DNA of 64,000 nucleotides. It comes from a virus. Every line of letters starts with the position of its first letter. Within the stretch, counting starts at the first letter, position 1. Both the position numbers and the translations under genes were made by a program. The notes beneath the pieces were generated by a model that made no database searches, had not been told where the DNA came from, and worked only from the letters and a program-made list of their open reading frames with translations. Where the stretch lies: the IMG/VR virus record IMGVR_UViG_3300035698_014365, positions 12,710 through 76,709 of that record; one strand, 5' to 3'. This document shows, piece after piece, positions 341 to 59,316 of the stretch.

Positions 341-3300
341 CTACTCCTTGAGCAAGTCATTGTCAGATACAGAGTATGCCTTTATCTTGCCAAGTTTCTT
401 CAGCAGGAATTGTTGCCGTGCCATCTCGCCTACAAAACTCACGTGCTTCGCCAGTATCTTCTCCTGTACCTCCGGAGACTTGTTTTTCCATGCGTCCTTT
501 CCAGTGGCTCCCTGCTGTCTCTTGAGGGCACGCCGGAACTGTCGCGTCAGTAGCTCAGCCATGTACTTCTGCAGAGCCGCGCGCTCCTCACCAGAGATGT
601 TGAACTCAATGCGGTCCTTCGCCTTCGAGGCACCAATCTTTGCCAGCTCTTTGACATCCGCAGGGTCTACGCCCAGCTTGCTGATTGCATCCTTCTTGCT
701 GAACGTGAGCTTTCTCGGTGCACGCCTCGGAATCTGACCCGTTCTGCGCTCAGCCTCGTATGGGGTGAGCACCATTTCTATCATCGGGTCCACGTCGTAC
801 TTGGTTACGAACGCCGGGTTCAAGAACACATTGAACAGCGAGTTGCTGCCGCTCTTGAATATCTGCTTCTTGTCCAACCCCAGCGTGTTGTACGCCTCGG
901 GGAGCATCTTCTCAACAAACGGGAGCTTATTTATTACGTTATTCAGGGCGCGTTTGAATGTGTTGGGGTCGTGCTTCTCCCGGGCGGTGTTATCCATAGC
1001 CTGGCGAACCTGATACACGAACGTCGGCACGAATGATGCCGGTGCCTGCTCAAACACCCGGGCAAGGGCGCGGGTGTACTGCTTCCCCTCGTCGCCTGGT
1101 ACGCCACGACCGAACAGGGTCTGCAGCCCAGCCAGCGCAGGGGTCTCAGCAATGGACTGGGCGCCACCAGAGAACGCATCAACCGTGTTGTCGAATGCTG
1201 CCCCGTAGTCGCCACTCTCAAACGCACGCTCCTGTCGAGCCTGTGCAATATTCGCACCCAGCGACAGGGATATGGCAAGCGGCTGTGCCCAGTCGTAGGA
1301 CACAAGCATGTCGTCTTTTCTCTTCTTCGCAGCCTCGGCATCGGTGAACCCAGAGAAAACCCATCGCTTGAGCCCGGACACGTTCACCCGATATGGGCCG
1401 CCACCCGTCTGCTCGCGCTCGAAGGCCGTGACGTTGTAGTTCTCTGCATCCCCAGTGATTATTCCCATGTTGTACATGGCGTAACCCATGCCAGTGAGGC
1501 CACCACCACCAACGACCGCCCTTGTGAGCGACCGGACGAACTCGCGCTGATTAAACTCGTGTCCTGCAACCGCACGGCCGAGGTGGTACATCGACTTCAC
1601 CATGCCTGCCGGCGAGTACTCAAGCGCACGGGCCAGAAGGTTGGCCGGCGTCTTCGGATACTTCAGCACGAGGTCGCCAACACCGAAATCTTTCTTCGCA
1701 TTCAGCAATTTCTTGAGTGCAACGGCTCCCTCGGAAAGAAAGTTGTCGTCTTGGAACGTGACATACTTGCCGTACTGGTGAGCCAATTCAATGGCCGCAT
1801 CCGGGGCGTTCTTCATAAAGTCCTGAACGTATGCCTTGCGGTCTGCCTTCGGAACCTTGTTGTTGATCGCTGCCAGCTCGGCTATCTCCCCAACCAACTG
1901 GTTCTTTACCGTCTCGTACACGGCGCGGTCAGTGGCACCAAGCGACACACCAAGGGCCTTCTCGAGGAAGCCGAGTGTCTTCTCAGCATACTTGAACGGA
2001 CCCTCTGCACCCTTGCCGCGGAACGCAGCTCCCTGTATCTGGAACTTGGTTGAAACGTCGCCAGTGGGGAGCCCTTTTATGGAGCGCCGGGCGCCCTTCA
2101 TAAACCCCTTGTACATCTCCTCAAAGGCGTGCGTGCCACCCTTGCCGAGCGTCACTGAGCGTTCTCCGGTCACCCTGGAAACACCAATGTCTATGGCTGT
2201 CGCCGGAAGGTCTATAACTCGCTCTGCCGCCTGCATGAGTGAGTTGCCAATAACATTCCTGCCAAGCGTCTTTACGTTTAGGAGCTGTGCTATTGTCTGG
2301 AGCGCGCTGACCCTGCGCCAGAACTTCGGGGGTTTCAGCAACTCAAGCGTCTGTTGCACCTCAAGGATGGCCTCGGTACGCGCGTCGCCGGTCAGTTCCT
2401 CAATTGATGCAGTGCGCTCCTTCAGGTGCTCAAACATTTCCTGCGGCACGCTCTCGTCAGACTCAATGCGCTTCACCAGACGGTCAACAGCAGTTGCCTG
2501 CTCCCACAGGGCCTGCGTACGGGCACGCTCAGTCTTCAGAACCTTGCGAGCACGACGGTATATCTTCTGGAGGTGAGGCTGAACACGCTCATCCAGGTCA
2601 CCCATCATGGACTTCGACCACTCGCCAAACTTCAGCCCGGTCTCGCCAAGTTTCGCAGCACCGATAATCGCCAGGTCTGCCATCTCGTCACCCGGGAGCC
2701 CTGCGCGGGTCTTCGCCTGCGTCAGAGACTTCTTGTACTTGTCCATGCGCTCGGCAGCCATGGTGTTGAGGCGGCCCTGCAGCATCTTATTGAGGCTCGG
2801 CTTCTTTGCCTTACCCTTCAGAGGAACAGGCTCACTGCCAACCGCGTCGTGAATCTTTGTCTGCATCAGCTTCAGCGACTCAACGTCCGAAGACGTGAGC
2901 TCTCCGCTGCTGACCACGCGCTCGAGGACACCGAGAACCTGTTTGGTTTCCTTGTCCAACGTGTCCCATGTCTGAGCAATCTTAGCGAGCCTCTGCAGCT
3001 CCTTTGCGTCCTTGGTCTGCAGCACGAGCTTGCGCTTGTCGGGGCGAGTCTTATTTATCTGATCGAGGCGTCTCTGCCCAGCGACAAGCACGCCGGCGGG
3101 GTCTTTGAGAAGGCGCCCAAACACTCTGGCGGCCTGAATCTCCTGGCCAGCCTTGGTGAGGGCAACCGACGTTTCGGTAGCAATTTCAATAGCCTTCGAC
3201 ATCGCCGCATCGGCGCGCGCAGGATTGCCTGTGCCAGCCTTATTTGACACGGACTGATAGTGGTCAATAAGTCGCATGGCCACAACGGTCTTCTCAGAGC

Positions 3301-6300
3301 CGCTGGACTCGTCGGACTTCACCCACTGCTCAGCACCTTCCCACCCGCGCTCCCTAATGACCGCGTCGGCGTTCTTAATGCTCTCAACATTTGACTTGGG
3401 GGTATACAGACGCGAAGTTCCGCCAGGGCGACCCTTTTTCTCGGCCGTCTTGGGGAAACTGCGTTCTTTCTGCTTTGGCTGCTGCTTGGGCTTGGCCCCT
3501 GCCTTGGGTGGCGGGGGCTTCTTGGGCGGTTCAGCCTTGGGCGTTACTGGCTCTGGGGTTGGGGCTGGCTTCGGCGCTTCTGGCGTTCCGCCAGGCGCTT
3601 GTCCATCATCTCCAGATACTCCTCGTGTGTCAGCTTGTCCCAGCCGGCCCGCTTGTTCGCCATCTCCGTGGACATAATCTGAGTTCTCCTTCCATCGGCC
3701 CGCACGTGTCTCGTCTTCAATATATCGACGATTCCCGCCTGCGTCAATGTCTCTATTTGATACATCCCTCAAATACTGCTGTTTTGCGTCCTCTGCGTCA
3801 GCGCCTGCACTACCAGATGTGGCCATTGGGTCGCGCCCGACCACATGATCTGCTGCCCCAACGTCCATTCCAACGCCTGTGGGCATGCCACCGTTCTTTG
3901 GGTGAGAAAGTTCGTGCAGGCCAAGTCCTCGGATATACCCATCGTACTCTGAGGACGCCCTCTCTGCTGCCGCACGTGATTCGTCGGCAACACGGGCAGC
4001 ATCAGCACCATTGAGCTCGTCACCACCAGTGCGGTCAATCTTGGACTCCGGCGTGTCGAGCTCCTGCTTCAGGAAGTCGCCCCCTTTTCGCATGGCAATA
4101 TTGGCAGCATCGTGCCCCTTCAGCGGGTTGCCATCGGCATCCAAGTACTCAGGGTGCTTGCTTGCCCATTCTTTGCTGTAGTACTCACCGTTGGCGTCTG
4201 GTAGCTTGCCCTCAAAAAAGTCGTTGAGGCCACCGAGGTTGCGGAAGTCCACCGAGACTATCGAAAAGGGCTTCTTCAGGCTTGCGAGTCTGTATATCGA
4301 ATTGACATAGATAGGCCGCGTCGGCATATCCATGACCTCGTCGTGCGAAAGGTCGGCCAGCGCCTCGGTGTTTTTGCGAATCTTGTCGGAAACGCCGGGC
4401 TGCTGGGCTTCACGCACGAACGCAAGCGTCGGGTCAAGAATTTCCGCGGTGTTTTCTGGCTCGGTTGTGCCCTCAAACTTCTTCAGGACGCGCGCGCCTA
4501 TCTTGTCGGCCGCATCTACCTCGGGGCTCTTTGAAGTGCTTTCTGTGAGATTCTTTGTGGCATTTTCCGTGACCTTTGCCAGTTCCTGCGGTGTCGCTGG
4601 GGCCTTGAACTCCGGTTCGGGCTTTGTGTCCCCCGGCTTGGCGATATCCAATGTTGGCTGCTTCGGCCCCGCCCCGGGCTTTGGCTGCTCAAACTGTGCT
4701 CCGGGTTGCATCTTCGGCAGGGCGTCCCCGGCGAGCTTGTCTGCGACTGGCTCGAACAGCTCGTCTCTGCGGGCACCAAACTCGTCAACCTTCGCATCGG
4801 AAACGACTGCAAACCCCTCTTTGCCCTTGCCCTTGATCCATCCCTTTATCTCGGCGCGCTGCGCGCCCTGCAGAACCTTGAATTTGGCACCAGACGCCAC
4901 GTCGCGGATGGAAAACCCCTCTGCAATGGCGAGGTTCAGGAGCTCTTGCTTCATCCACTCCGCCGAGACAACATTTTCCCCGACAGCGCTCCCAACCCAA
5001 GCGTCATATGCGAGGTCGGCCAGCGGCTGTGCGAGAAGCTGCAGGGCGCCCGCGGGAGCATACACCTCTGGAATCACTGACACGAAGCCGGCGCCAGCAC
5101 CACGGGCGGCCGCAAAGAGGGCGTCGCCTAGTGCCACCTTGCCCTCTGTCAGGTCGTCGATAGTGCGTGCGCCAGACAGGCCACCCGCAACAATGGTTCT
5201 GGTCAGTGCAGATGTGAGAAATTTCGACTTAGCAATCCACGGAACGGTTTGGAGTCCCTTGCCCACAAGCCCCGCCATCCCAATGGACTGCAAAACTGTG
5301 CCAGAAATCTGTCCACCGACAAACAACTCGGGGTTTTCCTTGCGTGCCTGATCCACCATACGGTCTACGGCGCGGACATTCGTTGCAACCGAACGGCCAG
5401 CCTTACCAACTGCCCCGGGAACCTTGCCAACGGTTCCTTCGGCAAGGGATGCGATGCCCTTTCGGAGCAGACGGCTGCCCGGGACAGATTCACTAATTCC
5501 GGCAACGGTCGATACGAACGGGTTGACCCTCTCCTCAATTGCAACGTCTTCGATTAGCTGCTGGTTCACAGTCCGCTGTACATTGTCCCCCGAGCGGTCA
5601 AGGACCAATCTTTGCTGGTTCTCAGGCAGAGAGGCCAGCCAGCCCGCTGTGCCAACTTCACCGTCACCCTCAAGCCCTTGTGACTTCGCCAGATTGCGTA
5701 GCTCGCGCGCGCTGACACCGACCAGCGGTTTACGCGAAGCCTCATTGCGACTGTTCGCAACAACAGTTTCTTCGCGCTCGGGAAGGGCGGGCGCCACAGG
5801 ATCGTCAGACGCCGCAACAAAGTCCTCGCCAGCGTAGAGGTGCCCGGGGGGCGCCTCCTCCTGCCCCACGCGCAACTGGCGCTCCTCCTCTGTCTCTGCT
5901 GGAGGGGTTGTTGGCTCAATGTCAACACGAGTGGCGTCAGGAACAGCAGCCTCAGTAAGGGTGCGCTCGGGGCCCGGGGGAGCCATGGGGCCTTCGCCAA
6001 GAACCTCTCCTAGAATTCCGGTGCGGTCCGGTCCAGCAGGTTCAGGTGCAGGCGCTGGAGCAGGGGCACTCGGGGCTGCCGCGCCCGGCTCAACGAATAT
6101 CTCTGACAGGTTCTGGGAGATGGCCTGTGACTCCCACCCGCCGTAGGCATCGAGACCACCAAGGGCAGACGACAGACCCGCAATACGCCCCTCGTCCCCA
6201 GAGGACAACACCTCTGTGACGTTGGAGCGGATGTCGTCCGGAGACCACCCTGAGTATGCAGGGAGTGCGGACGCCGCGCCAAGAAAACTATCCTGACGTG

Positions 6301-6316
6301 CGATATCGAGAGGCAC
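341..6316 (-). CDS. Giant internal virion/DNA ejection (polyvalent-type) protein with a GGDEF-like domain
   Basis: 1991 aa; last and largest of a run of Ala/Gly/Gln-rich genes after the tail genes; motifs IVSVDFRNLGGLND...GHDAAN...RTGGDEL at ~3770-4335. Confidence 0.75.
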   Translation of the reverse strand: MPLDIARQDSFLGAASALPAYSGWSPDDIRSNVTEVLSSGDEGRIAGLSSALGGLDAYGGWESQAISQNLSEIFVEPGAAAPSAPAPAPAPEPAGPDRTGILGEVLGEGPMAPPGPERTLTEAAVPDATRVDIEPTTPPAETEEERQLRVGQEEAPPGHLYAGEDFVAASDDPVAPALPEREETVVANSRNEASRKPLVGVSARELRNLAKSQGLEGDGEVGTAGWLASLPENQQRLVLDRSGDNVQRTVNQQLIEDVAIEERVNPFVSTVAGISESVPGSRLLRKGIASLAEGTVGKVPGAVGKAGRSVATNVRAVDRMVDQARKENPELFVGGQISGTVLQSIGMAGLVGKGLQTVPWIAKSKFLTSALTRTIVAGGLSGARTIDDLTEGKVALGDALFAAARGAGAGFVSVIPEVYAPAGALQLLAQPLADLAYDAWVGSAVGENVVSAEWMKQELLNLAIAEGFSIRDVASGAKFKVLQGAQRAEIKGWIKGKGKEGFAVVSDAKVDEFGARRDELFEPVADKLAGDALPKMQPGAQFEQPKPGAGPKQPTLDIAKPGDTKPEPEFKAPATPQELAKVTENATKNLTESTSKSPEVDAADKIGARVLKKFEGTTEPENTAEILDPTLAFVREAQQPGVSDKIRKNTEALADLSHDEVMDMPTRPIYVNSIYRLASLKKPFSIVSVDFRNLGGLNDFFEGKLPDANGEYYSKEWASKHPEYLDADGNPLKGHDAANIAMRKGGDFLKQELDTPESKIDRTGGDELNGADAARVADESRAAAERASSEYDGYIRGLGLHELSHPKNGGMPTGVGMDVGAADHVVGRDPMATSGSAGADAEDAKQQYLRDVSNRDIDAGGNRRYIEDETRAGRWKENSDYVHGDGEQAGRLGQADTRGVSGDDGQAPGGTPEAPKPAPTPEPVTPKAEPPKKPPPPKAGAKPKQQPKQKERSFPKTAEKKGRPGGTSRLYTPKSNVESIKNADAVIRERGWEGAEQWVKSDESSGSEKTVVAMRLIDHYQSVSNKAGTGNPARADAAMSKAIEIATETSVALTKAGQEIQAARVFGRLLKDPAGVLVAGQRRLDQINKTRPDKRKLVLQTKDAKELQRLAKIAQTWDTLDKETKQVLGVLERVVSSGELTSSDVESLKLMQTKIHDAVGSEPVPLKGKAKKPSLNKMLQGRLNTMAAERMDKYKKSLTQAKTRAGLPGDEMADLAIIGAAKLGETGLKFGEWSKSMMGDLDERVQPHLQKIYRRARKVLKTERARTQALWEQATAVDRLVKRIESDESVPQEMFEHLKERTASIEELTGDARTEAILEVQQTLELLKPPKFWRRVSALQTIAQLLNVKTLGRNVIGNSLMQAAERVIDLPATAIDIGVSRVTGERSVTLGKGGTHAFEEMYKGFMKGARRSIKGLPTGDVSTKFQIQGAAFRGKGAEGPFKYAEKTLGFLEKALGVSLGATDRAVYETVKNQLVGEIAELAAINNKVPKADRKAYVQDFMKNAPDAAIELAHQYGKYVTFQDDNFLSEGAVALKKLLNAKKDFGVGDLVLKYPKTPANLLARALEYSPAGMVKSMYHLGRAVAGHEFNQREFVRSLTRAVVGGGGLTGMGYAMYNMGIITGDAENYNVTAFEREQTGGGPYRVNVSGLKRWVFSGFTDAEAAKKRKDDMLVSYDWAQPLAISLSLGANIAQARQERAFESGDYGAAFDNTVDAFSGGAQSIAETPALAGLQTLFGRGVPGDEGKQYTRALARVFEQAPASFVPTFVYQVRQAMDNTAREKHDPNTFKRALNNVINKLPFVEKMLPEAYNTLGLDKKQIFKSGSNSLFNVFLNPAFVTKYDVDPMIEMVLTPYEAERRTGQIPRRAPRKLTFSKKDAISKLGVDPADVKELAKIGASKAKDRIEFNISGEERAALQKYMAELLTRQFRRALKRQQGATGKDAWKNKSPEVQEKILAKHVSFVGEMARQQFLLKKLGKIKAYSVSDNDLLKE

Positions 6317-7722
6317 TAAAATCCTCCGCCACGGTTATCCGCTGGTGCGCCGCCTCCCCCTCCACCGCTCTGCTGTGCAAGAATAGCCTGCACGGCCTTC
6401 AAGTCCTCCGGTGTTGGCTGTGGCATCTCCGAGTCCTCGGCCAGCTTTGGAGAATACATGTGTGCAAGGGCCGCACGATACCGAGGAACAGCCCACACCT
6501 GTGCCGCTGCCGAGTTGGGGAGAATGCGATAAGTCGTCTTGCCAAATGCATCAGTGTCAGCCTGAACACTCTTCGGGAATATTGCTTGGAGCTCACGCTT
6601 CAAGACTGTGCTCAAATCCTTCTCGGACTGGCCGGCAGTCTTCGGAGTCGGCGACTTGGGTGCAGCCGCACCGCTGGCCTTCTGTGTCGCCAGCTTTTTC
6701 TGCTCCTCGGCAGCCTTGATTTCTCCCTGGTAGCGAATCCCATCATTCTCGAGCTTGCCTTTGAGGTCCAGCAACTCGTCCTTGTCAGTGGGCAGCCCGG
6801 TCTCCTGCGCCATCTGCTGTATTTTGATGTTCGCCTTCTCGTCAGGCCCACCAGCCATGAGCTTCAGGAGCTTGTCAACATCCGAGGTTTTTTTCTTTGA
6901 CCCTGCGAGCTGTTCCTGCTTGCCGTACACATAGAAGTTGGCACCCGTAATGGACTGGAGCCCGCCACGCGCCTTCGTCTCAGTAAGGAGCTGCTGATCA
7001 GGGTCTTGGCCCATCTCGGGAGTGCGGCCCTGCTGAATAAGCTGCTTTTCTTTCTCCTGAAGCTGAGAGCCGGGGCCGGTGGCGGCAATCTCTTGTCCAG
7101 TCACATCGGGGACCGACCCAGCGACCTGTTGGGTAAGCTCCTGCGTGCTCTGTGCCCCGGGAATCAACTGGCTCGGTGGCTCCTGTGGAGGCAAATCATC
7201 TGCAGGCCCGAGCCTCTGGGCGAGCTCCGGGTTCTCAACATTGCTCCTGCCAATATCCTCGTCGGTTGGAGCGGCGCCCTGTGGCCCCATCATACTCACC
7301 TGCGAGGACTGGCCGGCGATGTTGGCCGTCTCGGCTATTGTGCTCTTGCGGCGATCCTTGGCCTGTTTCTCCCATATAGGAAAGCTCATACCAAAAATGG
7401 GGGGCGTGTCAAGCCCAAGCTCGGCAACAGCCCTCTTCTGAAGCTCGTACTGGGCGACGTAGTTAAGGAACTTATCAGGCTCCTCTATTGAGTCCACCCT
7501 CTTTTTCATTGCCGAGCGCTTCTGCTGGCTCCAGTCCGACGCCGTAGGAGAGGCCAATAGCTGGGCTGTAAATTCGCTCTTTGTGGCAGTGAAGTTCTTC
7601 ATCTTCTTGCGCAGCTCGGCCGCAGCAACCGTGTTGTCAGCAGATCTTCCAACCTTGCCGAGTTGCGACGCTATCTTACCAAAACCGCCAATAAAGTCTG
7701 TTACAGGGTATGGAGCGCCCAT
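6316..7722 (-). CDS. Putative internal virion protein
   Basis: 468 aa, Gln/Ala/Lys-rich and helical; lies among the putative ejection proteins. Confidence 0.55.
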   Translation of the reverse strand: MGAPYPVTDFIGGFGKIASQLGKVGRSADNTVAAAELRKKMKNFTATKSEFTAQLLASPTASDWSQQKRSAMKKRVDSIEEPDKFLNYVAQYELQKRAVAELGLDTPPIFGMSFPIWEKQAKDRRKSTIAETANIAGQSSQVSMMGPQGAAPTDEDIGRSNVENPELAQRLGPADDLPPQEPPSQLIPGAQSTQELTQQVAGSVPDVTGQEIAATGPGSQLQEKEKQLIQQGRTPEMGQDPDQQLLTETKARGGLQSITGANFYVYGKQEQLAGSKKKTSDVDKLLKLMAGGPDEKANIKIQQMAQETGLPTDKDELLDLKGKLENDGIRYQGEIKAAEEQKKLATQKASGAAAPKSPTPKTAGQSEKDLSTVLKRELQAIFPKSVQADTDAFGKTTYRILPNSAAAQVWAVPRYRAALAHMYSPKLAEDSEMPQPTPEDLKAVQAILAQQSGGGGGGAPADNRGGGF

Positions 7723-8102: not shown

Positions 8103-10316
8103 CTAGAAAGTCCCTACTGCGTTTTCGCCTACGAGGGCGCCCTCAAGACCACTCCTGTTTTCGCTGCTCCAAAGGTGGCGAGACACCCCCATCGAATAGA
8201 ACTTCCACATACTTACGATCTGGGACTCGCCCCAGCCCTTGGCGGCAAAGTTGTCGTAAACGGCCATCGGAACGACCTCTGTCAACGTAGTCCCGTCTGC
8301 CACCATTGTTGCGAGTTCGTCAGGCGAATATCCATAGTTGTCAAACCACCCAAGCTCTACCTGTCTTGCTGTTATTGGATCTCCAGCAGTGGTCGGTTCA
8401 ATATTTCTACGGATGTCATCAGAAACAAGTGGTGCAACAGTGTCGTTCATCCACCGCCCGGTCCTCGCCCAGTCCTCAACTGTCATATTCGGGGCTATTT
8501 CTGACAGCAGGTTAGAAAGCTCAAGAGAGTTGGCCGCCTTCTTATCAGGGTTATCGGTTGAATTGTGCTCTGAGGTAAGACGCCAAATGCGCTCAAACTC
8601 GGCCTCAAAGTCGGCGGGGTTTGACATGATTGTAAGCATGTTTTGGCCTCCGCTATTGTACCATGTCTCAAACTCCTGCGTTGTCGGCTGACCAAGGTTC
8701 TCCCACACGCTCTGGGTAGCGTTCTCCGCAAGCTCAGGGTTCAGGTTCTCGGTGAAAGTACCGAAGGCAGTCGCTCGCTGCTCTGGCGTCACGGCTAGAC
8801 CACCGCCGGGGCCCCCACCGCCCCCAGGAACGCTGAGTCCAAGACTCTCAAGCATGTCGTAGTCTATCTGGAACTTGCCATCTGCGTCGAACGTCCCAAC
8901 GCCAAGGAGATGCATCTTCCCAATCGTGGACCGGGCTTCCGCGGGGTCCATGTCCGGGAACAGCGTTGCAAGCGTATCGTCGTCCAGGGAATTCATGGCC
9001 TGGTAGACAGGGTCTCCGTTGAGTGCCATCTTCTCATACATAGCCTTGGCCGACTCTGGCGCCATCCCAAGCATGTCGATGGTCCCGTCGTTCTGCATTG
9101 CGGTGAATGCATCGTCCCAGCCCATGCCGCTTGCAATGTACTTGGTTATATTCTCCATGCCAGACGCAAAGTCAGCACGCGACTCTGCGGTCAGCATCCT
9201 GTCGGTGTTCAGCGGAACCCCATACAAGGACTCAAACGCAGTAGACGCCTGTGCGAAGTTGTCTGCTCCGCCAGCCTCTATGAGGGCCTGTGCGGCATCT
9301 ACCTTTCGAGTGTACTCCTGCTGAGACTTCTGCAGGCCAAGTGTCGCCATGCTGTTCACCGCCTGCATCTGACGCGCAGCGGCCTGCTCGTTGATGCCGC
9401 GCATCGCTTCGACTTCCTGCCCACCAAACTGGCCCTGAAGCATCGCGCGCTCAGTAAGGCCCTCGCGACCAGTCATGCCAAGCTGAGACATGTCCTGCGC
9501 AAGCGCACCAGAGGCAGCCTGCTCCTCGCCCTTCAAACGCATGCGCTCCGACTGGCGTTGCTGGTCAAGCTGCGGGTCTTGCCCTGCGGCAATCTGGCTC
9601 ATAATACCAGTGCTCTGATTGAACAGGCTGTCGCCCTGGCCAACCTGTGCCACGGGTGTCGTAGCAGCGGGGTCTGCCGGGGGGTTATTCAATGCATCCA
9701 AGTTCGCGTTAGGCGCATTGGGGTCACCGGTGGCGCTCAGATCAAGGTTCAAATTCCCCATCTGTGTCGATGGTACAGCGCCCGCACCTGCTGCCACCCC
9801 GTCAGAGGTTGCCAGTGGAAGATCCAGGTTTCCCATCTGTGCCGATGACCTACCTCCCCTCAGGCTACCCTTCGCAACGGCTGCAGGGGGCCTTGCCCCA
9901 CCCAAAACACGCGGGTCAACTCCCGCAGCAGCCCTTCCACCGGACCCCTTGGCTTCGGCTGCTGATGGCCTAAATGTCCCGCCCCTCTGCGCCCCTGGAA
10001 TCCCATAATCCCGTTCAATTCCCTTGAGCTGCGACTGGCTGACCGGAGTAACCGTCATGCTGCCATCGGGGTTGCGCGTCAAGTCCTCTCCTTCATGGAG
10101 CATCAGGGGGCCTTCCTGCGTCCCGACCATCTGTGTCGGGTTGGATGGCTGTAGTTGCCCATCTTCACCGAGACCAGTGTTGCCAAGGGCCTGTGAGCCA
10201 AGCGGCGGCCCCGCGGCCACTGCCAACTGCTTGCGCAGCTCCTTCAGGGACTTCGACTCTTTGCGCGAAGCGCGAGTCTGTTCTTCCTTGAGCCACTTAT
10301 ATCTCGACTTAGCCAT
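8103..10316 (-). CDS. Putative internal virion protein
   Basis: 737 aa, Gly/Ala/Gln/Met-rich, with short internal repeats (QMGNLxL twice). Confidence 0.55.
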   Translation of the reverse strand: MAKSRYKWLKEEQTRASRKESKSLKELRKQLAVAAGPPLGSQALGNTGLGEDGQLQPSNPTQMVGTQEGPLMLHEGEDLTRNPDGSMTVTPVSQSQLKGIERDYGIPGAQRGGTFRPSAAEAKGSGGRAAAGVDPRVLGGARPPAAVAKGSLRGGRSSAQMGNLDLPLATSDGVAAGAGAVPSTQMGNLNLDLSATGDPNAPNANLDALNNPPADPAATTPVAQVGQGDSLFNQSTGIMSQIAAGQDPQLDQQRQSERMRLKGEEQAASGALAQDMSQLGMTGREGLTERAMLQGQFGGQEVEAMRGINEQAAARQMQAVNSMATLGLQKSQQEYTRKVDAAQALIEAGGADNFAQASTAFESLYGVPLNTDRMLTAESRADFASGMENITKYIASGMGWDDAFTAMQNDGTIDMLGMAPESAKAMYEKMALNGDPVYQAMNSLDDDTLATLFPDMDPAEARSTIGKMHLLGVGTFDADGKFQIDYDMLESLGLSVPGGGGGPGGGLAVTPEQRATAFGTFTENLNPELAENATQSVWENLGQPTTQEFETWYNSGGQNMLTIMSNPADFEAEFERIWRLTSEHNSTDNPDKKAANSLELSNLLSEIAPNMTVEDWARTGRWMNDTVAPLVSDDIRRNIEPTTAGDPITARQVELGWFDNYGYSPDELATMVADGTTLTEVVPMAVYDNFAAKGWGESQIVSMWKFYSMGVSRHLWSSENRSGLEGALVGENAVGTF

Positions 10317-10740: not shown

Positions 10741-10905
10741 CTATTGCTTTACTTTGTCCTCAAGCTCTTTGACGCGATGTCTCAGAGCCGTGACTTGTGC
10801 GTTCAGTTGGTTTGCCAGGTCAATCACCTTGCGCTGCGACTCCGGATCGGCAGGGTCAATGTCCCGGACAATATTCTGATACTGTTCATCTACCAAATTG
10901 GGCAT
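10741..10905 (-). CDS. Small coiled-coil protein, 54 aa (MPNLVDEQYQNIVRD...KELEDKVKQ)
   Basis: Read by hand (below the ORF-track cutoff); fills the gap between neighbours; heptad-like C-terminus. Confidence 0.55.
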   Translation of the reverse strand: MPNLVDEQYQNIVRDIDPADPESQRKVIDLANQLNAQVTALRHRVKELEDKVKQ

Positions 10906-13205
10906 GTCGTGTCTCCCTGGTGCTCAGTCATGTCTCGGTGCATGTACAGCACCGACTCGAGGTCCGGAGCATTCGACACTATCCGCAAGTCGCTGAATTG
11001 GCAGCCACCAGACAGCAGCGTAACCGCCCCACCATAGCTCTCCGTCGAATCGGGCAGGTTGGCAGTGTTGGTAAGGGCCCCGTTCTCATATACAATCAAC
11101 GATGAGCCGTCACGAACCACCACCAGGTGCGTCCAGGCAGCATATGTTTCATTAAGATACACTCTTATGTCGTTGTTATCATCCTCAAATCGCAATGCGT
11201 ACCCTTCGTCTTGAAAACGGACACGCAATCGCAGTTCTCCGTCGTCGAATATCACCACTTCATCGGACAGGCTGCGAAGCCACACGCCAACAGCGAAGTC
11301 GCCGGAGCCAGTTGCTGCCATTGTGGCAGTCAGGCTGTCTGTGATGCCCATCACAACGGCGCTCCCCGACTTCCCGTCAGGGCCAATCGTAGTATTCGAG
11401 AACGATCCACCGGCAGCAACACCGGTTGCGCGGTCCATTGTCGGCGACAACTGGTCTCTGCCAATCCACAACAGAGGCGTTGACCATGCCAGCGCCCACG
11501 ACATCTCACTCATCAGCTTCTTGGGTGGCGCACTGCCCTTGCTGAACAGCTTTGCCCACATCTGCGTCATAACCAGGCGCCATGGAGCCACAACCACGCG
11601 AGTCACGAGCTGGATGAACTTCGACTCAAAGTGTCTGTCAGCCACAATCTGGCCATCAATAGGCACTTCCCGGGTCACCACAAAGTCTGTCGGCAGAGAG
11701 TCTTGGCGCAGCGCAGCGTCCATCGACATGCCCGGGCGGTATCCATCGGCATCAAACTCGCCCACAGAGCGCACGTTTTTGTACCACGGCTTCACATTGA
11801 TATGCGTCTCACTGTGCCGGTAGATGTCGGAGCCCAGCTTCGCGTACAGCTCGGGGTATATCACCTCGCTCTCAATCTCAGAGCCAGCGTACTCATCTTC
11901 CCCGTCTTTCCACTGGTCGTCACGCCCCATCTCGTGGATCTTGAACGTCGTGGCGTCCATCACCAGCGGCACACTCTCATCCACAGGACTCTGCAGCTCA
12001 ATGGTGCCCGTCTTACCAATGGGGTACGGGAATGCCTCCCCGTTGTAGAACGACCACCCAACGCCCTGAGAGGGCTGCTGAGGGATGGCGTGGCGTGCAC
12101 AGAAGTCGGTCTTACTCACGACATACCCTGAGCCGTAGTCCCAGTTGTGGATGTAGATGGTGAGGGTCGTCGTCGAGGTGTTGCCCAAGGCGTCGGTGAT
12201 TACGTACGTTACTTCGTATTCGCCAGGCGACTCGTAGGTGTGGGCCGGGTCTTTCTCGTCGCTCGTTGTGCCATCCCCAAAGTCCCAGAAGTGCCCCGTG
12301 ACAGCCGCATCCTCGGTTCCGGTGAACTGCTTGTTGTCAGGAGCGGCGCCGGTCTCTGAGTCCACCGATGCAGACGCTGCGGGGATGCCAAAGTAGAACG
12401 CCCCAACACCCTGCCTGTCCTCGTCGGCATACCCGTGGTCGTATCCGGTGAACGCATTGTCCTGCTCCGGCAGCCCAAACAGCGAGTAGCGCATGTTCTG
12501 CGTGGTGAACGTAGTGATGTCGCTCGGGATGTCGCGAGACAGCGTAACGCTGAACGTACACCCAATATACGTGATGTTGGTGCCGTTGCCGACCTGTGAC
12601 TGCGTCTTGCCCACGAAGGTGCAGTTGGTGCAAATCACCGTGTAGTTGCTGGCCACATCGAATTCGCAGTCAAGGAACAGGCAGTCGGTGAACCGGTATA
12701 CGTTGCCTATCTGGCCGTTGTACCCCACGGCGAACAGCGGCGAGTGGATTGTGCACCCCTCAAACCTGAATACACAGCTACTGTGGTCCACGTCGACCTG
12801 CAGAGAGGTCGCGTGGCGCATGTAGCACGACTTCCAGGCGTACTCATTGCTATCAGAAATTACCCGCATTGTAAGCGTGAGGTTGCCCAGAACCCCTCGC
12901 GCCGTGGTAAGGCCATCGGCGTTTTTATCCGAGCCGTAGTAGTCAAACTCGTCAGTGATTATCCACGCATCAAACCCACCCTCTGACCGATTCCACCCGT
13001 CAAGTGTTTGGTTGGGATTACCCATGAAAACGTCTACATCAAGGTAATCATATGTCCCATTCATGCGGAAAATGGAGCCTGCGGCATCCCCACCATTCTC
13101 TATGAACGTAAGCCACCGAGGATACCCCCACGGATCGGCGGAAGTACCAGGATTCATCCCCGTTCCAAGGGTGCTAAAGTCTGTGTAGAACGTCGCCATG
13201 GGCAA
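10890..13205 (-). CDS. Tail protein: beta-helix-like N-terminus, PKD domain, nozzle-like segment, LamG/concanavalin-like domain
   Basis: GTSADPW start motif; WDFGDGTTS...PAHTYESPGEYEV PKD signature; WTHLVVVRDGSSLIVYENG...FSDLRI LamG signature. Confidence 0.75.
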   Translation of the reverse strand: MPMATFYTDFSTLGTGMNPGTSADPWGYPRWLTFIENGGDAAGSIFRMNGTYDYLDVDVFMGNPNQTLDGWNRSEGGFDAWIITDEFDYYGSDKNADGLTTARGVLGNLTLTMRVISDSNEYAWKSCYMRHATSLQVDVDHSSCVFRFEGCTIHSPLFAVGYNGQIGNVYRFTDCLFLDCEFDVASNYTVICTNCTFVGKTQSQVGNGTNITYIGCTFSVTLSRDIPSDITTFTTQNMRYSLFGLPEQDNAFTGYDHGYADEDRQGVGAFYFGIPAASASVDSETGAAPDNKQFTGTEDAAVTGHFWDFGDGTTSDEKDPAHTYESPGEYEVTYVITDALGNTSTTTLTIYIHNWDYGSGYVVSKTDFCARHAIPQQPSQGVGWSFYNGEAFPYPIGKTGTIELQSPVDESVPLVMDATTFKIHEMGRDDQWKDGEDEYAGSEIESEVIYPELYAKLGSDIYRHSETHINVKPWYKNVRSVGEFDADGYRPGMSMDAALRQDSLPTDFVVTREVPIDGQIVADRHFESKFIQLVTRVVVAPWRLVMTQMWAKLFSKGSAPPKKLMSEMSWALAWSTPLLWIGRDQLSPTMDRATGVAAGGSFSNTTIGPDGKSGSAVVMGITDSLTATMAATGSGDFAVGVWLRSLSDEVVIFDDGELRLRVRFQDEGYALRFEDDNNDIRVYLNETYAAWTHLVVVRDGSSLIVYENGALTNTANLPDSTESYGGAVTLLSGGCQFSDLRIVSNAPDLESVLYMHRDMTEHQGDTTCPIW

Positions 13206-17617: not shown

Positions 17618-18910
17618 CTACGCAGTGCGCGAGGTCTGACGGTAACGGCCGCCAATGACAAGCGCCGACCCGAAGTACTCACGCCCGACGCCCGTTGCAT
17701 CCACAGGGGATGTATCGAACTGGAGCTGCTGAATACCACGCACACCAGCATAGCCGTAGCCATTGCGGATGTTGTAGTCGTAGTTGTCGTTGACGTAATG
17801 CATCGGTTCCGGCTCCCATTTCACGAGCGCACCAGCACCATGAAGAACCATGGCATCGCGCACGAGCGGGTTGTCCAGCCGGCGGTCGTCGTTGTCTGTC
17901 GGCCACATGTAGTGAGCCGTCAGCCCGAACGGTTCGGCGCTACCGGACGGGAGCAGTGTAGCAAGGCGCTCGTCCAGAACGACGTAGATATCAGCACCAG
18001 CAGCCGACATCCACTTGCCCAGGGTTCCATACCAGTTCTGCGCCGGCTCGTCCTTGAGACGATTCATTGCAGTCCAGCGGTCACCAAGGGTGTCCGTGAA
18101 GTTCGGGTTGGAGAAGTACGCGGCCTGCACCTGTGAAACGGTGAGAACGTACCACGGACGTTTCCCAGGAAGCGGGATAATCCGACGGCGAAGCGCAAAG
18201 ATGGCCATCTCATCCATGGCCCAGCCACTCAACATCTGAGGCTGCGTCTGGGTGAAGGCGCCTGCTCCGCCACTCACGGTGTCCATCGCACTCACGATGC
18301 GATTGGTGTACGTCGCGTACGTCGGGTGGAACGCCGGCTGAGTGTCGGCATTGAGGCCCACCACGAAGGCGTGACGGTTCCACTGGGCGGGAGCCAGGTT
18401 GGCGGTTGAGCCAGCCATAAGGTTCCAGCCGTTCGTCTCGATCAGCGCCATGCGGATTTCCAGACCTTCCTCAGCCGCAGCATGAGGGGAGAGGTCGTCC
18501 ACGTGAGCCTGATAGAGCCGGTAGGGTTCGGCGTCCAGCTTGTCCTCACCGTAGCCAGGCTCATCCTGAATAACGAAGCGGTATGGCGCGCGATACAGAG
18601 TACCCGTCTTCACCTGCGGCGGAACCTCAGTACCCAACGCAACCGTGCGACCACGCAGGATGTTGGCGTTGATGGGGAGCTTCATCGTGACACGAATGTT
18701 ATTCGCGCCAGCGCTGTCTTTCGGAGCAATCGGCTGGTAGATCCCCGCAGGGATTTCCAGACGCTGACCATCATAAAGAATGGTCTTGGCCCGCAGGTTC
18801 GTGTAGATATCCCGCGGGAGGGCACGTCTTCGCAGTTCCCTTGAGAAGTTGCGAATAACGCTCTGACCACCGGACATGGTGCCCAGATCGGTGTACTGGC
18901 TGAGAGCCAT
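17618..18910 (-). CDS. Major capsid protein (N4-gp56/DUF4043-like)
   Basis: 430 aa, after the scaffold; C-terminal DNYDYNIRNGYGYAGVRGIQQLQF...REYFGS pattern; strong codon bias; downstream hairpin. Confidence 0.8.
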   Translation of the reverse strand: MALSQYTDLGTMSGGQSVIRNFSRELRRRALPRDIYTNLRAKTILYDGQRLEIPAGIYQPIAPKDSAGANNIRVTMKLPINANILRGRTVALGTEVPPQVKTGTLYRAPYRFVIQDEPGYGEDKLDAEPYRLYQAHVDDLSPHAAAEEGLEIRMALIETNGWNLMAGSTANLAPAQWNRHAFVVGLNADTQPAFHPTYATYTNRIVSAMDTVSGGAGAFTQTQPQMLSGWAMDEMAIFALRRRIIPLPGKRPWYVLTVSQVQAAYFSNPNFTDTLGDRWTAMNRLKDEPAQNWYGTLGKWMSAAGADIYVVLDERLATLLPSGSAEPFGLTAHYMWPTDNDDRRLDNPLVRDAMVLHGAGALVKWEPEPMHYVNDNYDYNIRNGYGYAGVRGIQQLQFDTSPVDATGVGREYFGSALVIGGRYRQTSRTA

Positions 18911-20719: not shown

Positions 20720-22861
20720 TTATTCCGCACCCTCTTGCGGAATTTCCATATACTGCTCCTCTGGGGACGAGAAATCACCCCCGCCCTCGGGGGGAGCAAC
20801 CTGTTCTGGCTGCGAGTTGGTAGGCTGACCCTGTGAAGGGCCACCAGGAGCTGCGCCTTGGGGGGCACCGCCTGGCTGCGCACCAGCTTGCTGAGCCATC
20901 TGCTTTAGCATCTGTAGGGCCTGTTTCTGCATCAGAATTGACTGTGCAGTCTGGGCCTTTGTACCTTCAATCTCAGAAATCGCCTGCAGCATGTCGCGCA
21001 TTTCCTTGAGCTTGCCAAGCATCTCGACCTTTTTCTTCTCCTGCGGATCAAGCTCTATGGTCTGGAGAATGCGGTTGGTCAGAATGCGAATCTCTGCCTG
21101 GAACAGCTCTGGGTGCGCCGACAATATCTTGGTGATATCATAAAGCATGGCCTGCTCACCAATGCGCTGAGTTGGGCTGTCCTTGCGCAGGGTCACATAC
21201 ACGTTGGCCCGCGGCAAATCAGAGATACTGTTCTCGTAGAGCCGTTCTGTGCTCTCGCCGTCAACGCGGTACTGCGGACGGTTGAACTCGATTTCCTCGT
21301 CAGTGTCGCCGTCGCGAATCTTGCGGTACTGGTCCTTATAGGTGATGCGCGCCTGATTGTACCACGCCTCGCCCTTGTTCATAAGATGCTGGCGCCAGTT
21401 GTCATACAGAACCAGGGTGCCGAGCTTCGTGACCGCATGCCGCATTTCGAATAGAACGCCGGACTCAGACTGTGGGCCCGTGCCCTCGAGCGCTGGCGTG
21501 ACCGGGAGGACTTCGTTGAACAGGCTCAGGGTCTGCCCTATGTCCTGCATAATCGACGACGGAACCTCTTTGTTGGCAACCTGCCCCATCACAAGGCGGG
21601 GGTCACCGTGCGCAGCGACCATGAATCCAGGCTTCGTAGCATTCTCGCTGATTTCACGGAACGTGGTCTGCGAGGTGTCGAGTGCATCGACGTTGACGAT
21701 CTTCATGTCAGACGCCAGCGACGCAATAATGTCGTCTTTCTTGGCTTCTCGGTAGTTCAGGGTGCGCACGAGGTCGATTGCGGCATCCATGACGCCCTTA
21801 TCGATACCCATCTCGCGGCATGCACTGAAGGGGAAGTAGCCGATAAACCCGCACTGAACGTCGTGGTCGCCCTCATACAGGAACGTCGTACGCGAGATGT
21901 CGGGGCAGCACACGCCGAGCTTCAGCGTACGAGAGGTGTATGGAAATTCCTTGACGTTGCTGAAATCGGTGATTTTGTAGCGCTTCATGTACTTCTGAAC
22001 GTCGGCACGGCCCTCAATATCCAGCGGAAATTCAATCCAATCGCCATTTTCGTTCTTGCCGTACAGCCTGGTTGTCTTCTTTTCCTCTATCCAGCGGTAC
22101 TCAATGACCAGATACTTGTCACCCCATCGGTTCGGGACGCGCTCAAACGTATCGACGTTATCAGAAAAGCCCACATCCTCCTGAGAATTGCTCTGGTCCC
22201 GAGCAATGCTGCGGAACGTGTCGTCGCGGATGTCCCACTTGTCGATCATTTCCTGTGGGGTGAACCATGCGTGCTTGATTGCGCGCTTCCAGTCCTTCAG
22301 GTCATCGGTAATCCAGTAGGGGTCTTTCAGTACCATGCCGCTCTGGGGCGACGTAAACGCAAGCGCACCCTGTGGGCGGAGGTCGTAGCGGACCGTAAGC
22401 TCCTCGTACCCGCTGTGCAGGAGGCCGCGGAGGCAACATCGATTCTCACTGTTGTGGTAGTTGTATTGCTCAGCGTCTGCATGATACCAGTGCTTGAGCT
22501 TCTGGAGGGTCCAACTGTTTTCCTGATCGAGGGCCTGAAAGTCGAAGTCCCACTTTTCAGACAAGATTGAGCCTGCGAGGGTGTCTATTTTGCGGCTCGC
22601 TACATCGATGCTTACCGGGTGGCGACCGTCCTCTACGATTTTGCTGTACGATTCGCGGTCCCAGGAACTGCCGTCTACGGGCACGTAGGCCCGGATGTTG
22701 CGGAAAAGCCTGTCTCGTTGAGAGCGCGTCTTGGTGAGCCAGTCGTCGTTCTTGCGCTCTATGTCATTGATGAAGTCGTTACTCGAACTCTCCAGCTCCC
22801 GATAAGGGATGTTGGTGGAGATATTCGGAGCACGAATTTCCTTGGTATCAGCCATCCCCAT
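20720..22861 (-). CDS. Portal protein (P22-like)
   Basis: 713 aa; GRHPVSID and SESGVLFEMR motifs; Gln-rich C-terminal coiled coil; gene position. Confidence 0.8.
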   Translation of the reverse strand: MGMADTKEIRAPNISTNIPYRELESSSNDFINDIERKNDDWLTKTRSQRDRLFRNIRAYVPVDGSSWDRESYSKIVEDGRHPVSIDVASRKIDTLAGSILSEKWDFDFQALDQENSWTLQKLKHWYHADAEQYNYHNSENRCCLRGLLHSGYEELTVRYDLRPQGALAFTSPQSGMVLKDPYWITDDLKDWKRAIKHAWFTPQEMIDKWDIRDDTFRSIARDQSNSQEDVGFSDNVDTFERVPNRWGDKYLVIEYRWIEEKKTTRLYGKNENGDWIEFPLDIEGRADVQKYMKRYKITDFSNVKEFPYTSRTLKLGVCCPDISRTTFLYEGDHDVQCGFIGYFPFSACREMGIDKGVMDAAIDLVRTLNYREAKKDDIIASLASDMKIVNVDALDTSQTTFREISENATKPGFMVAAHGDPRLVMGQVANKEVPSSIMQDIGQTLSLFNEVLPVTPALEGTGPQSESGVLFEMRHAVTKLGTLVLYDNWRQHLMNKGEAWYNQARITYKDQYRKIRDGDTDEEIEFNRPQYRVDGESTERLYENSISDLPRANVYVTLRKDSPTQRIGEQAMLYDITKILSAHPELFQAEIRILTNRILQTIELDPQEKKKVEMLGKLKEMRDMLQAISEIEGTKAQTAQSILMQKQALQMLKQMAQQAGAQPGGAPQGAAPGGPSQGQPTNSQPEQVAPPEGGGDFSSPEEQYMEIPQEGAE

Positions 22862-42278: not shown

Positions 42279-42650
42279 TTAGACCGTGTGCGTCCCTTCT
42301 ACACCCCGGGCCTGACGCGCAGCCGTACGGTGGTTGAGCCAGTGCATGGCCTCTTCCAGCTTCGTGAGCGCCAAGGCGTTCTCGCGGCACGAGTAGTCAC
42401 CGGACTGGAACCCCTGAAGCCGGTCGATGACGATGGCGATCAGGTCTTCGTTGTGGCACCCGTTGACATCCCCTTCTTTGATTGGGCCGTTCTGAAACTC
42501 GACCCAGGCAAACGTCGTGGGTGGCGTGTCCTTGTCAGAAGGCTTGTCCACCTCTCCAACCTGATACCTGTGGCACGCATTCCCCGCGCCCGGCTTGTCG
42601 AGGCACACAACCTTTGTGTAGCGCTGGCTTCCAATGCCCAGTGTTCTCAT
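42279..42650 (-). CDS. tad1: Tad1-family anti-defence sponge (Thoeris/CBASS signal sequestration)
   Basis: G.G.A.H.Y...FQ.GP......G...EDL..IV.DRL..FQ.G..SCRENA.AL..LEEA..WL..R...R..RGVEGT matches the Tad1 motif pattern as recalled. Confidence 0.85.
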   Translation of the reverse strand: MRTLGIGSQRYTKVVCLDKPGAGNACHRYQVGEVDKPSDKDTPPTTFAWVEFQNGPIKEGDVNGCHNEDLIAIVIDRLQGFQSGDYSCRENALALTKLEEAMHWLNHRTAARQARGVEGTHTV

Positions 42651-43001: not shown

Positions 43002-43353
43002 CCTCTTCCTCCTTCTGATAGACAAGCAATGGCTTGCCTGCTTTGTGCAGTGGCTTGACCATCTTGAAGCCATGCTTCAAACACAGGTCGCGCCCTGCCG
43101 TGGATAACCAAGAGGTCCATATTGCATCGAACCTCTGGGTCAAGTACCACATGAGCCTGTCTGCAAACCCCTTTTGGCGGTCCTCTTCGTGGTACACGTA
43201 GATATCGAGAAGCACGAGCCCTTCGCGGTCACTCGGGTTGATCACGAGCGCGCGACCAATCATACGCTCTTCCTCGTACAGTGGAATATTGTAAATGCCG
43301 TAGCACTCAATGTACTCTTCCTCGACCGACACTTCCTTGACTTTCTGAATCAT
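42814..43353 (-). CDS. GNAT-family acetyltransferase with an acidic overlapping tail
   Basis: DIYV...RQKGFADRLM (motif A) and AGRDLCLKHGF. Confidence 0.7.
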   Translation of the reverse strand: MIQKVKEVSVEEEYIECYGIYNIPLYEEERMIGRALVINPSDREGLVLLDIYVYHEEDRQKGFADRLMWYLTQRFDAIWTSWLSTAGRDLCLKHGFKMVKPLHKAGKPLLVYQKEEEDGGSKESGSKEEGRAEEGAGEDSGVGEGNCDRGAGEASGSPGSEDGQAPEEDSQGPEGPEEG

Positions 43354-58324: not shown

Positions 58325-58540
58325 ATGAGCGTATCCAGCAAGAAAGTGCACAGGATCAGGACCAAGGACGGCGGCACGATTGATGTCGAGAACTACGGGC
58401 GGGCGAAGGCCATTAAGCTGCAATGCACTGCCTGTTGCGGATTTGGGGAGGCCCACCCGAGAGATTGTACGGATAAATACTGTCCACTGTACCCGTACCG
58501 CGGGAAGATGCTCGCGGCTTATCACAAGGAGGAGGAATGA
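58325..58540 (+). CDS. Small zinc-binding protein
   Basis: KAIK..C..CCG......C....CPLYPYR. Confidence 0.6.
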   Translation: MSVSSKKVHRIRTKDGGTIDVENYGRAKAIKLQCTACCGFGEAHPRDCTDKYCPLYPYRGKMLAAYHKEEE

Positions 58541-59316
58541 CTATCAAGGTTGTTGGGATGTCCCCAGAAGACACTGCCCATATCGTGCCACCCAACACCA
58601 TCCTCTTGGGGTACGTGGGCTCTATTTCACACGGCACCCAGATCGTCGGGGCCGATTCAATCGACGACCGGGACATGATGGGCTGCGCCCTCGGGCCAGT
58701 TGAGTGCTATCTGGGGCTCAAAAAGTTCGAGCAGAGAGAGTGCAAGCGCGGCGTCTGGGACTCGGTTATCTATGAACTCCGGAAGTTCGTGCACCTCCTC
58801 CTGAAGCAGAACCCCAACGTCATGGGGTTGCTGTGGTTACAGCGCAAGGACTACATCCACATCTCCCCGCACGGCCAGTTGCTCATCGACAACCGCGAGA
58901 TGTTCATGTCGCTCAAGGCGTACCACAGCTTCGTAGGATATGCCCACAGCCAGCTTCACCGCATGACACACGGCGCATACCAAGGCTACATGGGACAGAA
59001 GCGCAAGGCCCTGGTTGACCGGTTCGGCTACGACACAAAGAACGCCGCCCACCTCATTCGGCTGCTCAGAATGGGCATTGAGTACCTGAAAGAGGGGCAA
59101 CTACACGTGTTCAGAGAGGACAACGTAGAGCTCAAGGCCATCAAAAAGGGTGAGTGGTCGCTCGAGCGAGTGCAGAAAGAAGCCGAGGATCTGTTCCGAC
59201 TGGCAAAGGAAGCACATGTGCGGTCCGCGCTGCCACCCGAGCCAAACTATGATGGTGCAGAACGGTTGCTTGTGTCAATTATCAAGGACGTTTTTGGGTG
59301 GAAGGAGGAGGGATGA
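58537..59316 (+). CDS. Pol-beta-superfamily nucleotidyltransferase (YcgL/Nuc-transf-like)
   Basis: GSISHG......DDRD.MG, YELRKF, NPNV, GYA, YDTKNAAHLIRLL. Confidence 0.85.
   Translation: MTIKVVGMSPEDTAHIVPPNTILLGYVGSISHGTQIVGADSIDDRDMMGCALGPVECYLGLKKFEQRECKRGVWDSVIYELRKFVHLLLKQNPNVMGLLWLQRKDYIHISPHGQLLIDNREMFMSLKAYHSFVGYAHSQLHRMTHGAYQGYMGQKRKALVDRFGYDTKNAAHLIRLLRMGIEYLKEGQLHVFREDNVELKAIKKGEWSLERVQKEAEDLFRLAKEAHVRSALPPEPNYDGAERLLVSIIKDVFGWKEEG

Follow-up and report, generated by a model that had tools for sequence, protein, structure and literature searches.

Whether a phage can carry a cyclic nucleotide-making enzyme into its host as part of the virion is the question raised by a giant protein encoded in IMG/VR record IMGVR_UViG_3300035698_014365. 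This virus record is a complete genome of 76,709 bp with direct terminal repeats (DTRs), and the stretch of DNA analyzed here, called the window, is most of it (64,000 nucleotides, positions 12,710 to 76,709 of the record). An initial annotation, made from the letters of the sequence, had described a GGDEF-like nucleotide cyclase domain at positions 3770–4335, which correspond to residues 661–849 of an open reading frame (ORF) of 1,991 amino acids (P0001), and had proposed that the domain is injected with the DNA. The plus-strand frame at these positions is full of stops, so the domain has to be read on the minus strand. The analysis places this domain in the GGDEF superfamily and suggests, with a probability of about 60%, that P0001 is a late polyvalent protein whose diverged but catalytically competent GGDEF cyclase is packed in the virion, ejected, and makes a cyclic dinucleotide.

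Scans of the protein and of the domain with Pfam, PHROGs, and NCBIfam gave no GGDEF match, and phmmer of the domain against PDB sequences returned only a chance-level match to an orotidine monophosphate decarboxylase (E 0.009). An exhaustive phmmer search of 1.84 billion cluster representatives, with residues 597–906 as the query, found 22 relatives, nine of which are giant proteins of 1,762–4,300 residues (E 1e-107 to 1e-13). Among the weaker relatives (E 1e-9 to 4e-4), P0013, P0014, P0015, P0017, P0018, P0019, P0021, and P0023 score above the Pfam GGDEF cut-off with 31–81 bits. So does P0006, which shares 40% identity with the query domain (24.4 bits; cut-off 23.8). The Pfam-negative giants and the Pfam-positive members form one family (local hhalign probability 100%, E 3e-45). 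The target thus misses PF00990 but its homologs pass it, so that it is assigned to the superfamily (PF00990/TIGR00254) by transitive and structural evidence. When the nine Pfam-negative giants were made into a profile, hhalign aligned it to Escherichia coli DgcZ (L002:4961-5851:-) with a probability of 92.6% (E 4.6e-7), which rose to 97% (E 8e-11) for a profile of the whole family. The alignment with DgcZ spans the entire domain, from the ‘D.LTGLP.R’ lead-in through the Lys of helix 5, in the same motif register.

Structure prediction, proposed in the initial annotation as a check, yielded a GGDEF palm fold. With a 23-row alignment (A2), AlphaFold2 (AF2) gave a model with a predicted local distance difference test score (pLDDT) of 90.7 and a predicted template modeling score of 0.85; the single-sequence run reached a pLDDT of 40. 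In the PDB, each of the best 50 Foldseek matches of the model is a GGDEF diguanylate cyclase (among them SiaD, WspR, PleD, DgcB, DgcZ, and DosC), with a probability of 1.00. VIA-align against solved cyclases gave Z scores of 15–18.2 and root-mean-square deviations (rmsd) of 2.0–2.5 Å over about 150 of 160–170 residues, and it also aligned the helix preceding the core (model residues 43–60) with the stalk or coiled-coil helices of WspR, DgcB, and SiaD. The last helix of the N-terminal extension runs on into the GGDEF core of the model in the manner of a stalk, and the C-terminal extension forms short strands (model residues 269–281) and is disordered thereafter. By hhalign, AF2, Foldseek, and VIA-align the resemblance to GGDEF domains is far beyond chance, and on these profile and model data the domain is a member of the GGDEF superfamily with a predicted palm fold.

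Active site residues were equated through the hhalign register and a MAFFT alignment with DgcZ and the canonical phage cassettes described below, in PleD numbering. All the motifs that the initial annotation had quoted could be located in the minus-strand translation: DMPT at residue 663, FSIVSVDF at 684, GHDAAN at 734, RTGGDEL at 762, and GMDVGAA at 816, as well as the insert of about 30 residues and the flanking Pro/Lys-rich linkers (Table 1). The metal-binding Asp and the GGDE motif (residues 764–767), which it regarded as retained, are so in both the profile alignment and the structural evidence, and hhalign aligns D690 to the first Asp of the DgcZ ‘DID’. ADAEDAK is likewise present, at residue 839, but it is not the canonical ‘AD’ of helix 5, which hhalign puts two residues earlier, at A837-G838. 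Other equivalences are PleD F331 to L694, N335 to N698, H340 to H735, G343-D344 to A738-N739, and R366 to R762; K845 is aligned to Lys442 by hhalign and to Arg446 by MAFFT. The spacing is exactly canonical, with 8 residues from Asp to Asn and, in the insert-free members, 5 from Asn to His and 4 from His to Asn. In an alignment of 21 relatives, 24 columns reach at least 75% conservation; the target agrees at 22 of them, including D690, N693, N698, H735, N739, R762, GGDE, K807, and K845, and departs only at S673 and G838. Within RxGGDE, the R, G, G, D, and E are kept in 20–21 of the 21 relatives, and the last position of the signature is hydrophobic in most. The RxxD allosteric site (I-site), an optional feature that many cyclases have five residues ahead of GGDEF, is absent, its positions being T755..S758, and the canonical cassette of sister phages is likewise without RxxD.

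The initial annotation had suspected that divergent motifs might mean a changed specificity, and altered specificity residues were indeed borne out by profile and structure. Position 739, which corresponds to the base-reading residue, is Asn in 18 of the 21 relatives and Asp in 3. In GacA, the residue at this Watson-Crick-face position, Ser348, relaxes the choice of purine and must be paired with GGDEF rather than GGEEF (PMC6456294); the whole divergent family carries GGDE. Asn at the base-reading position may shift specificity. The insert (FFxGKxPDxNG..W..HPE) occurs only in the giant-protein subfamily, where its F, F, G, K, and W are invariant (alignments A3/A4). It is modeled at a pLDDT of about 97, sits in the base-binding loop, and is without a canonical counterpart, as is a family-wide PHPK..G.PTG loop before the last core strand. 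The invariant K704 of the insert and K807 of PHPK might take the place of the canonical Lys332.

The history of the domain bears on whether it works as an enzyme. Sister phages (e.g., G003, 76,297 bp, with DTRs) keep the gene order of the 771-, 737-, and 468-residue proteins followed by the giant protein, and their giant proteins P0025 and P0026 (1,757–1,765 residues) carry a canonical GGDEF domain in the same slot (Pfam E 6e-14 and 3e-13), with the textbook residues DGDKFKAVNDTQGHKAGD, GGEEF, and KDGGRN. In sliding-window comparisons, P0003 (divergent type) and P0026 (canonical type) are 75%–96% identical along the backbone and 20%–40% identical in the slot, whereas the corresponding values for P0003 and the target protein are 52%–87% and 47%–67%. 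The history of the slot therefore conflicts with that of the backbone, which indicates that one GGDEF type replaced the other by recombination in a close lineage; the breakpoints lie in or near the Pro/Lys-rich linkers. Because two nonorthologous GGDEF enzymes alternate in one slot, the comparison argues that an enzymatic function, and not merely a structural role, is what the slot selects.

Delivery with the virion is suggested by analogy, from the late-operon position of the gene, the lack of cysteines, and the architecture of the polyvalent family. The giant ORF stands at the end of a long co-directional operon on the minus strand that encodes the large terminase, the portal, tail-like proteins, and unannotated large proteins. 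Taken together, the giant, 468-residue, and 737-residue proteins contain no cysteine in 3,196 residues, whereas cysteine averages 1.1% in ten other proteins that this phage encodes (P about 4e-16 jointly); several relatives are likewise Cys-free. Such a composition may be a sign of proteins that have to unfold in order to travel through the tail channel. Packaging and injection have been predicted for phage-type polyvalent proteins (Iyer et al., 2017; PMC5512222), and the N-terminal SLT domain of the relative P0006 also speaks for injection. A protein in the putative capsid position (17618..18910) is Cys-free too.

In the proposed mechanism, residues 597–906 would form a self-contained effector cassette, in which a helical stalk and a diverged GGDEF (palm) nucleotidyl cyclase lie between the Pro/Lys-rich linkers. 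The C-terminal module of about 1,040 residues and the Gly/Ala-rich region would serve as a fixed backbone, with the middle slot taking interchangeable enzymes. Synthesis of the giant protein would fall late in infection; it would enter the head alongside the two Cys-free proteins of the genes immediately upstream and leave the virion with the DNA. Once in the cytoplasm, it would dimerize via the stalk, each copy would bind one purine nucleoside triphosphate and Mg2+ (D690, D766/E767), and the pair would yield a cyclic dinucleotide. This could be cyclic di-GMP (c-di-GMP); because Asn replaces the guanine-reading Asp, a mixed dinucleotide or one that contains adenine is the alternative. Without an RxxD site, product feedback would be absent. 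An enzyme needing two half-sites fits with P0015, P0016, P0019, and P0024, in which the divergent GGDEF domain occurs as tandem pairs (family hidden Markov model [HMM] E 1e-32 to 1e-47 per copy) that may be built-in dimers.

Several observations weigh against this mechanism. The PF00990 model found no match in the whole phage genome at E 10, and hmmsearch of the PDB with a strict-subfamily profile found no GGDEF domain. The GGDEF domain is the single recognizable enzyme domain of the target, whose remaining ∼1,700 residues match no named family, so that the protein is ‘polyvalent’ mainly through its relatives. The C-terminal module has no Pfam, PHROG, or NCBIfam match, and megablast and tblastn of the giant gene, the C-terminal module, and the portal against 50,697 GenBank phage records gave no match, so no characterized virion is usable as a reference. 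Nor did the Pfam, PHROGs, and NCBIfam scans reveal a recognizable packaging signal, protease, or portal-binding domain in the giant protein. This, together with the expression of the gene with the late operon, would suit a true GGDEF cyclase that acts late in the producing cell, or from a structural protein that is not injected, with no delivery at entry; raised c-di-GMP could then drive polysaccharide or glycan synthesis or alter the cell surface, and c-di-GMP-dependent glycans are known to matter for infection by phage N4 (PMC8669472). Such a role appears unlikely, since a soluble late enzyme has no need of fusion to a conserved 1,040-residue module, and Cys-free composition, flexible linkers, and swappable cargo are those expected of ejected polyvalent proteins (PMC5512222). 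The active site itself holds further contrary points, which would favor a degenerate GGDEF domain that synthesizes nothing and acts as a nucleotide-binding, protein-binding, or purely structural module. The canonical Lys332 of the FK motif, a phosphate contact, is G695; the guanine-reading Asp is replaced by Asn, and the base recognition set specific for c-di-GMP is incomplete although N698 is kept; the F of GGDEF is Leu in the target and Gly in P0003; and the helix-5 ‘AD’ reads ‘AG’ (G838). Unusual polarity of the strand that follows GGDE (LNGADAA) makes reduced or different activity possible, and Pfam misses the domain altogether. However, D690, R762, and GGDE, which are usually lost in inactive GGDEF domains, are invariant or almost so in 21 relatives down to ∼25% identity; the missing I-site does not suit a c-di-GMP receptor; and the replacement of the domain by a fully canonical GGEEF type in the sister phages implies that the slot needs enzyme activity. 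A degenerate domain is about as improbable as a cyclase confined to the producing cell.

Instead of a cyclic dinucleotide, the palm domain might make linear pppNpN, a primer-like oligonucleotide, or longer cyclic oligonucleotides as Cas10 and mCpol do. GGDEF, the Cas10 palm, and mCpol share a fold, the insert and the PHPK..G.PTG loop border the substrate pocket, and at the base-reading position some family members have Asn and others Asp. Still, the best 50 structural matches include neither Cas10 nor class III cyclases, and the D-8-N-5-H-4-N spacing and that from GH to RxGGDE are exactly those of GGDEF domains, which leaves this alternative less likely again than the two preceding ones. As to what a cyclic dinucleotide delivered at entry would do, a 123-residue ORF (42279..42650, minus strand) matches Pfam Acb2_Tad1_hairpin (PF24729; 29.8 bits, cut-off 27, E 6.9e-7), which supports its prediction as a cyclic-nucleotide sponge of the Acb2/Tad1 type. 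Guard systems of the Panoptes type fire once a sponge depletes a decoy, a cyclic dinucleotide supplied by a small palm-domain synthase (PMC12657218). An injected, feedback-free cyclase with a changed base-reading residue could be a counter-measure that refills or imitates the decoy pool or floods another cyclic-nucleotide sensor at entry. This is a long shot; if it were true, the phage could use its sponge without tripping the guard, and the cyclase would be the first virion-delivered synthase of an immune-signal mimic.

The relatives supply the polyvalent context on which the virion-delivered cyclase reading draws. P0006 carries an N-terminal SLT domain followed by GGDEF, homing endonuclease, SNF2/helicase, and methyltransferase domains; P0005 carries LPD5, LPD1, and PRTase; P0007 carries RadC and ART-PolyVal; and P0013 carries LPD38. 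By BLASTP, P0004 and P0013 share only the GGDEF module with the target, which indicates that the module moves as a unit. The C-terminal module is far more widespread. A search with residues 1320–1880 found at least 628 homologs (E <1e-3) in proteins of 1,095–3,485 residues, of metagenomic and prophage origin (Paenibacillus, Neobacillus, Bradyrhizobium, and others), and the Pfam cargo of these proteins varies among GGDEF, ART-PolyVal, PBECR5, 2H phosphoesterase, Zeta toxin, DnaJ, and DdrB-ParB. Searching IMG/VR with alignment A5 found the module in 64 viral contigs, mostly of ∼40 kb, where a single-protein scan found none. Of 49 viral records with the module that were searched, only 2 contain PF00990, both of them sister phages, so GGDEF is a rare cargo for this backbone, and an IMG/VR search with a seven-row alignment of the divergent GGDEF domain returned one locus. 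The module has the invariant motifs TFQDDN..S, LKYPKTP, and YDWAQP. An Atlas lead equating it with LPD38 was rejected, as hhalign against the LPD38 region of P0013 gave a probability of 0.2%. In another complete genome with DTRs, IMGVR_UViG_3300009838_000026 (L001/L069; 60,909 bp), an open frame of 5,012 residues takes up a quarter of the sequence. It includes a domain of this divergent GGDEF family that lacks the insert and reads SKGEEF in place of GGDEF (Pfam 47.8 bits, E 4.6e-14).

Occurrence of GGDEF domains in polyvalent proteins and their predicted delivery by virions have been known since 2017, when Iyer, Burroughs, Anand, de Souza, and Aravind named GGDEF as one of the less common catalytic domains in polyvalent proteins of phages and proposed that invasive elements use cyclic nucleotide signals against host responses or rival elements (J Bacteriol; PMC5512222). 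Like the proteins of that set (e.g., Acetonema longum WP_004096050.1), the protein described here is giant, is encoded with portal, terminase, and virion genes, and has GGDEF among its family's swappable cargo. Unlike them, to the extent that a comparison with their published description allows, it has one enzyme domain and an unnamed C-terminal backbone (not MuF, LPD38, or MPTase), and its GGDEF domain belongs to a diverged subfamily missed by Pfam, with the 33-residue insert and changed base- and phosphate-contacting residues. What is particular here is a rare clade invisible to Pfam, with a changed base-reading residue and a substrate-loop insert, that alternates with a canonical cassette. 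A literature search that fell short of most subscription journals found no published test of the activity, product, or delivery of a GGDEF domain in a virion position.

Compared with the solved cyclases PleD, WspR, DgcZ, SiaD, and DgcB (PDB 1w25/2v0n, 3bre/3i5b, 4h54, 7e6g, and 6ttr), the domain shares the fold (Z 17–18, rmsd 2.0–2.9 Å), the order and spacing of motifs, the metal Asp, GG(D/E)E, the Arg before GG, and the preceding stalk helix. It differs in having no sensory input domain or RxxD, in the replacement of Lys332 by Gly and Asp344 by Asn, in the insert after Asn335 and the PHPK..G.PTG loop, and in being embedded in a viral giant protein. With the Hypr enzyme GacA of Geobacter, a synthase of cyclic GMP-AMP (PDB 5VS9; PMC6456294), it shares a non-Asp residue at the Watson-Crick face combined with GGDEF rather than GGEEF; unlike GacA, which has Ser, the family has Asn there, except for 3 of its 22 members with Asp. 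A Rec domain is lacking, and the sequence is no closer to GacA than to other GGDEF domains. Stand-alone phage GGDEF proteins (Bacillus phage G gp350, the SP-15 ‘diguanylate cyclase,’ and one of Bordetella phage CN1) are the best matches of the model in BFVD (E 7.5e-7 to 3e-3), but these are separate genes for proteins of 146–358 residues and are 12%–16% identical. Among ejected proteins, T7 gp16 is packed in the head and has an N-terminal transglycosylase, and in P0006, too, an SLT transglycosylase domain comes first. N4 virion RNA polymerase, T4 Alt, and P1 DarB are likewise large late proteins that are packed in the head and enter with the DNA, carrying an enzyme active on entry (PMC5512222). 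The giant protein is also large, late, and equipped with enzyme cargo, and its packaging and delivery are predicted; neither sequence nor profile similarity connects it with T7 gp16 or these three.

The alternation of cassettes amounts to a natural experiment, in that the close backbones of P0003 and P0026 carry a diverged and a textbook GGEEF cyclase, respectively, at the same slot. A comparison of their products would tell if c-di-GMP synthesis is something that phages deliver on entry, and if the diverged clade has switched nucleotide. As this clade is rare (22 clusters among the 1.84 billion representatives) and Pfam fails to see most of it, the frequency of such cargo is underestimated by current annotation pipelines.

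Table 1. Features of the giant protein and of its operon, in window coordinates
Feature	Position	Strand	Remarks
Giant ORF, 1,991 aa (P0001)	341..6316	(-)	GTG start; GGAGGA just upstream; last gene of operon
Gly/Ala-rich, weakly hydrophobic conserved region, aa 301–510	4787..5416	(-)	48%–75% identity to P0003 and P0026
Pro/Lys-rich linker 1, aa 534–577	4586..4717	(-)	Only ∼20% identity between relatives
Helical N-terminal extension of GGDEF module, aa 597–655	4352..4528	(-)	AF2 helices 2–18, 27–41, 48–60 (model numbering)
GGDEF-type core, aa 656–852	3761..4351	(-)	Family HMM envelope; hhalign to DgcZ; Foldseek, VIA-align
D690 (PleD D327), metal-binding Asp of DxD motif, end of strand 1	4247..4249	(-)	hhalign; kept in 21 of 21
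33-aa insert, aa 700–732 (FFEGK...W...HPE...)	4121..4219	(-)	Between conserved Asn698 and Gly-His
N739, site of guanine-reading Asp (PleD D344, GacA Ser348)	4100..4102	(-)	Alignments
GGDEL signature, aa 764–768, after invariant R762	4013..4027	(-)	Corresponds to canonical GGEEF
C-terminal extension of GGDEF module, aa 853–906	3599..3760	(-)	VD..GN..YI conserved in giant-protein subfamily
Pro/Lys-rich linker 2, aa 907–950	3467..3598	(-)	
Conserved C-terminal module, aa 951–1991	344..3466	(-)	No named family; backbone of giant phage/prophage proteins
468-aa gene	6316..7722	(-)	Cysteine-free; translationally coupled to giant gene; syntenic in sister phage
737-aa gene	8103..10316	(-)	Cysteine-free; syntenic in sister phage
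771-aa protein	10890..13205	(-)	PKD (E 4e-14) and C-terminal ConA-like lectin/Laminin_G_3 (E 1.3e-8)
Portal	20720..22861	(-)	Co-directional late operon
Large terminase	43350..45455	(-)	Co-directional late operon

The case for a transmembrane segment in the Gly/Ala-rich region is weak, as it depends on a single 19-mer (residues 411–429) with a Kyte-Doolittle value of 1.36. The GTG start of the giant gene overlaps the TAG stop of the upstream 468-residue gene by one base. The 771-residue PKD/lectin protein is likely a receptor-binding fiber or spike, and it is only 31% identical to its homolog in a sister phage. For an 860-residue protein, Atlas leads to the crAss muzzle and nozzle are weak (scores 0.81–0.92); they hint at a short-tailed virion and prove nothing. 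On the opposite-strand early or middle arm, a 259-residue ORF (58537..59316, plus strand) matches Pfam RlaP, an RNA repair pathway nucleotidyltransferase of the Pol-beta family (E 2.2e-15), and is a second nucleotidyltransferase in the genome.

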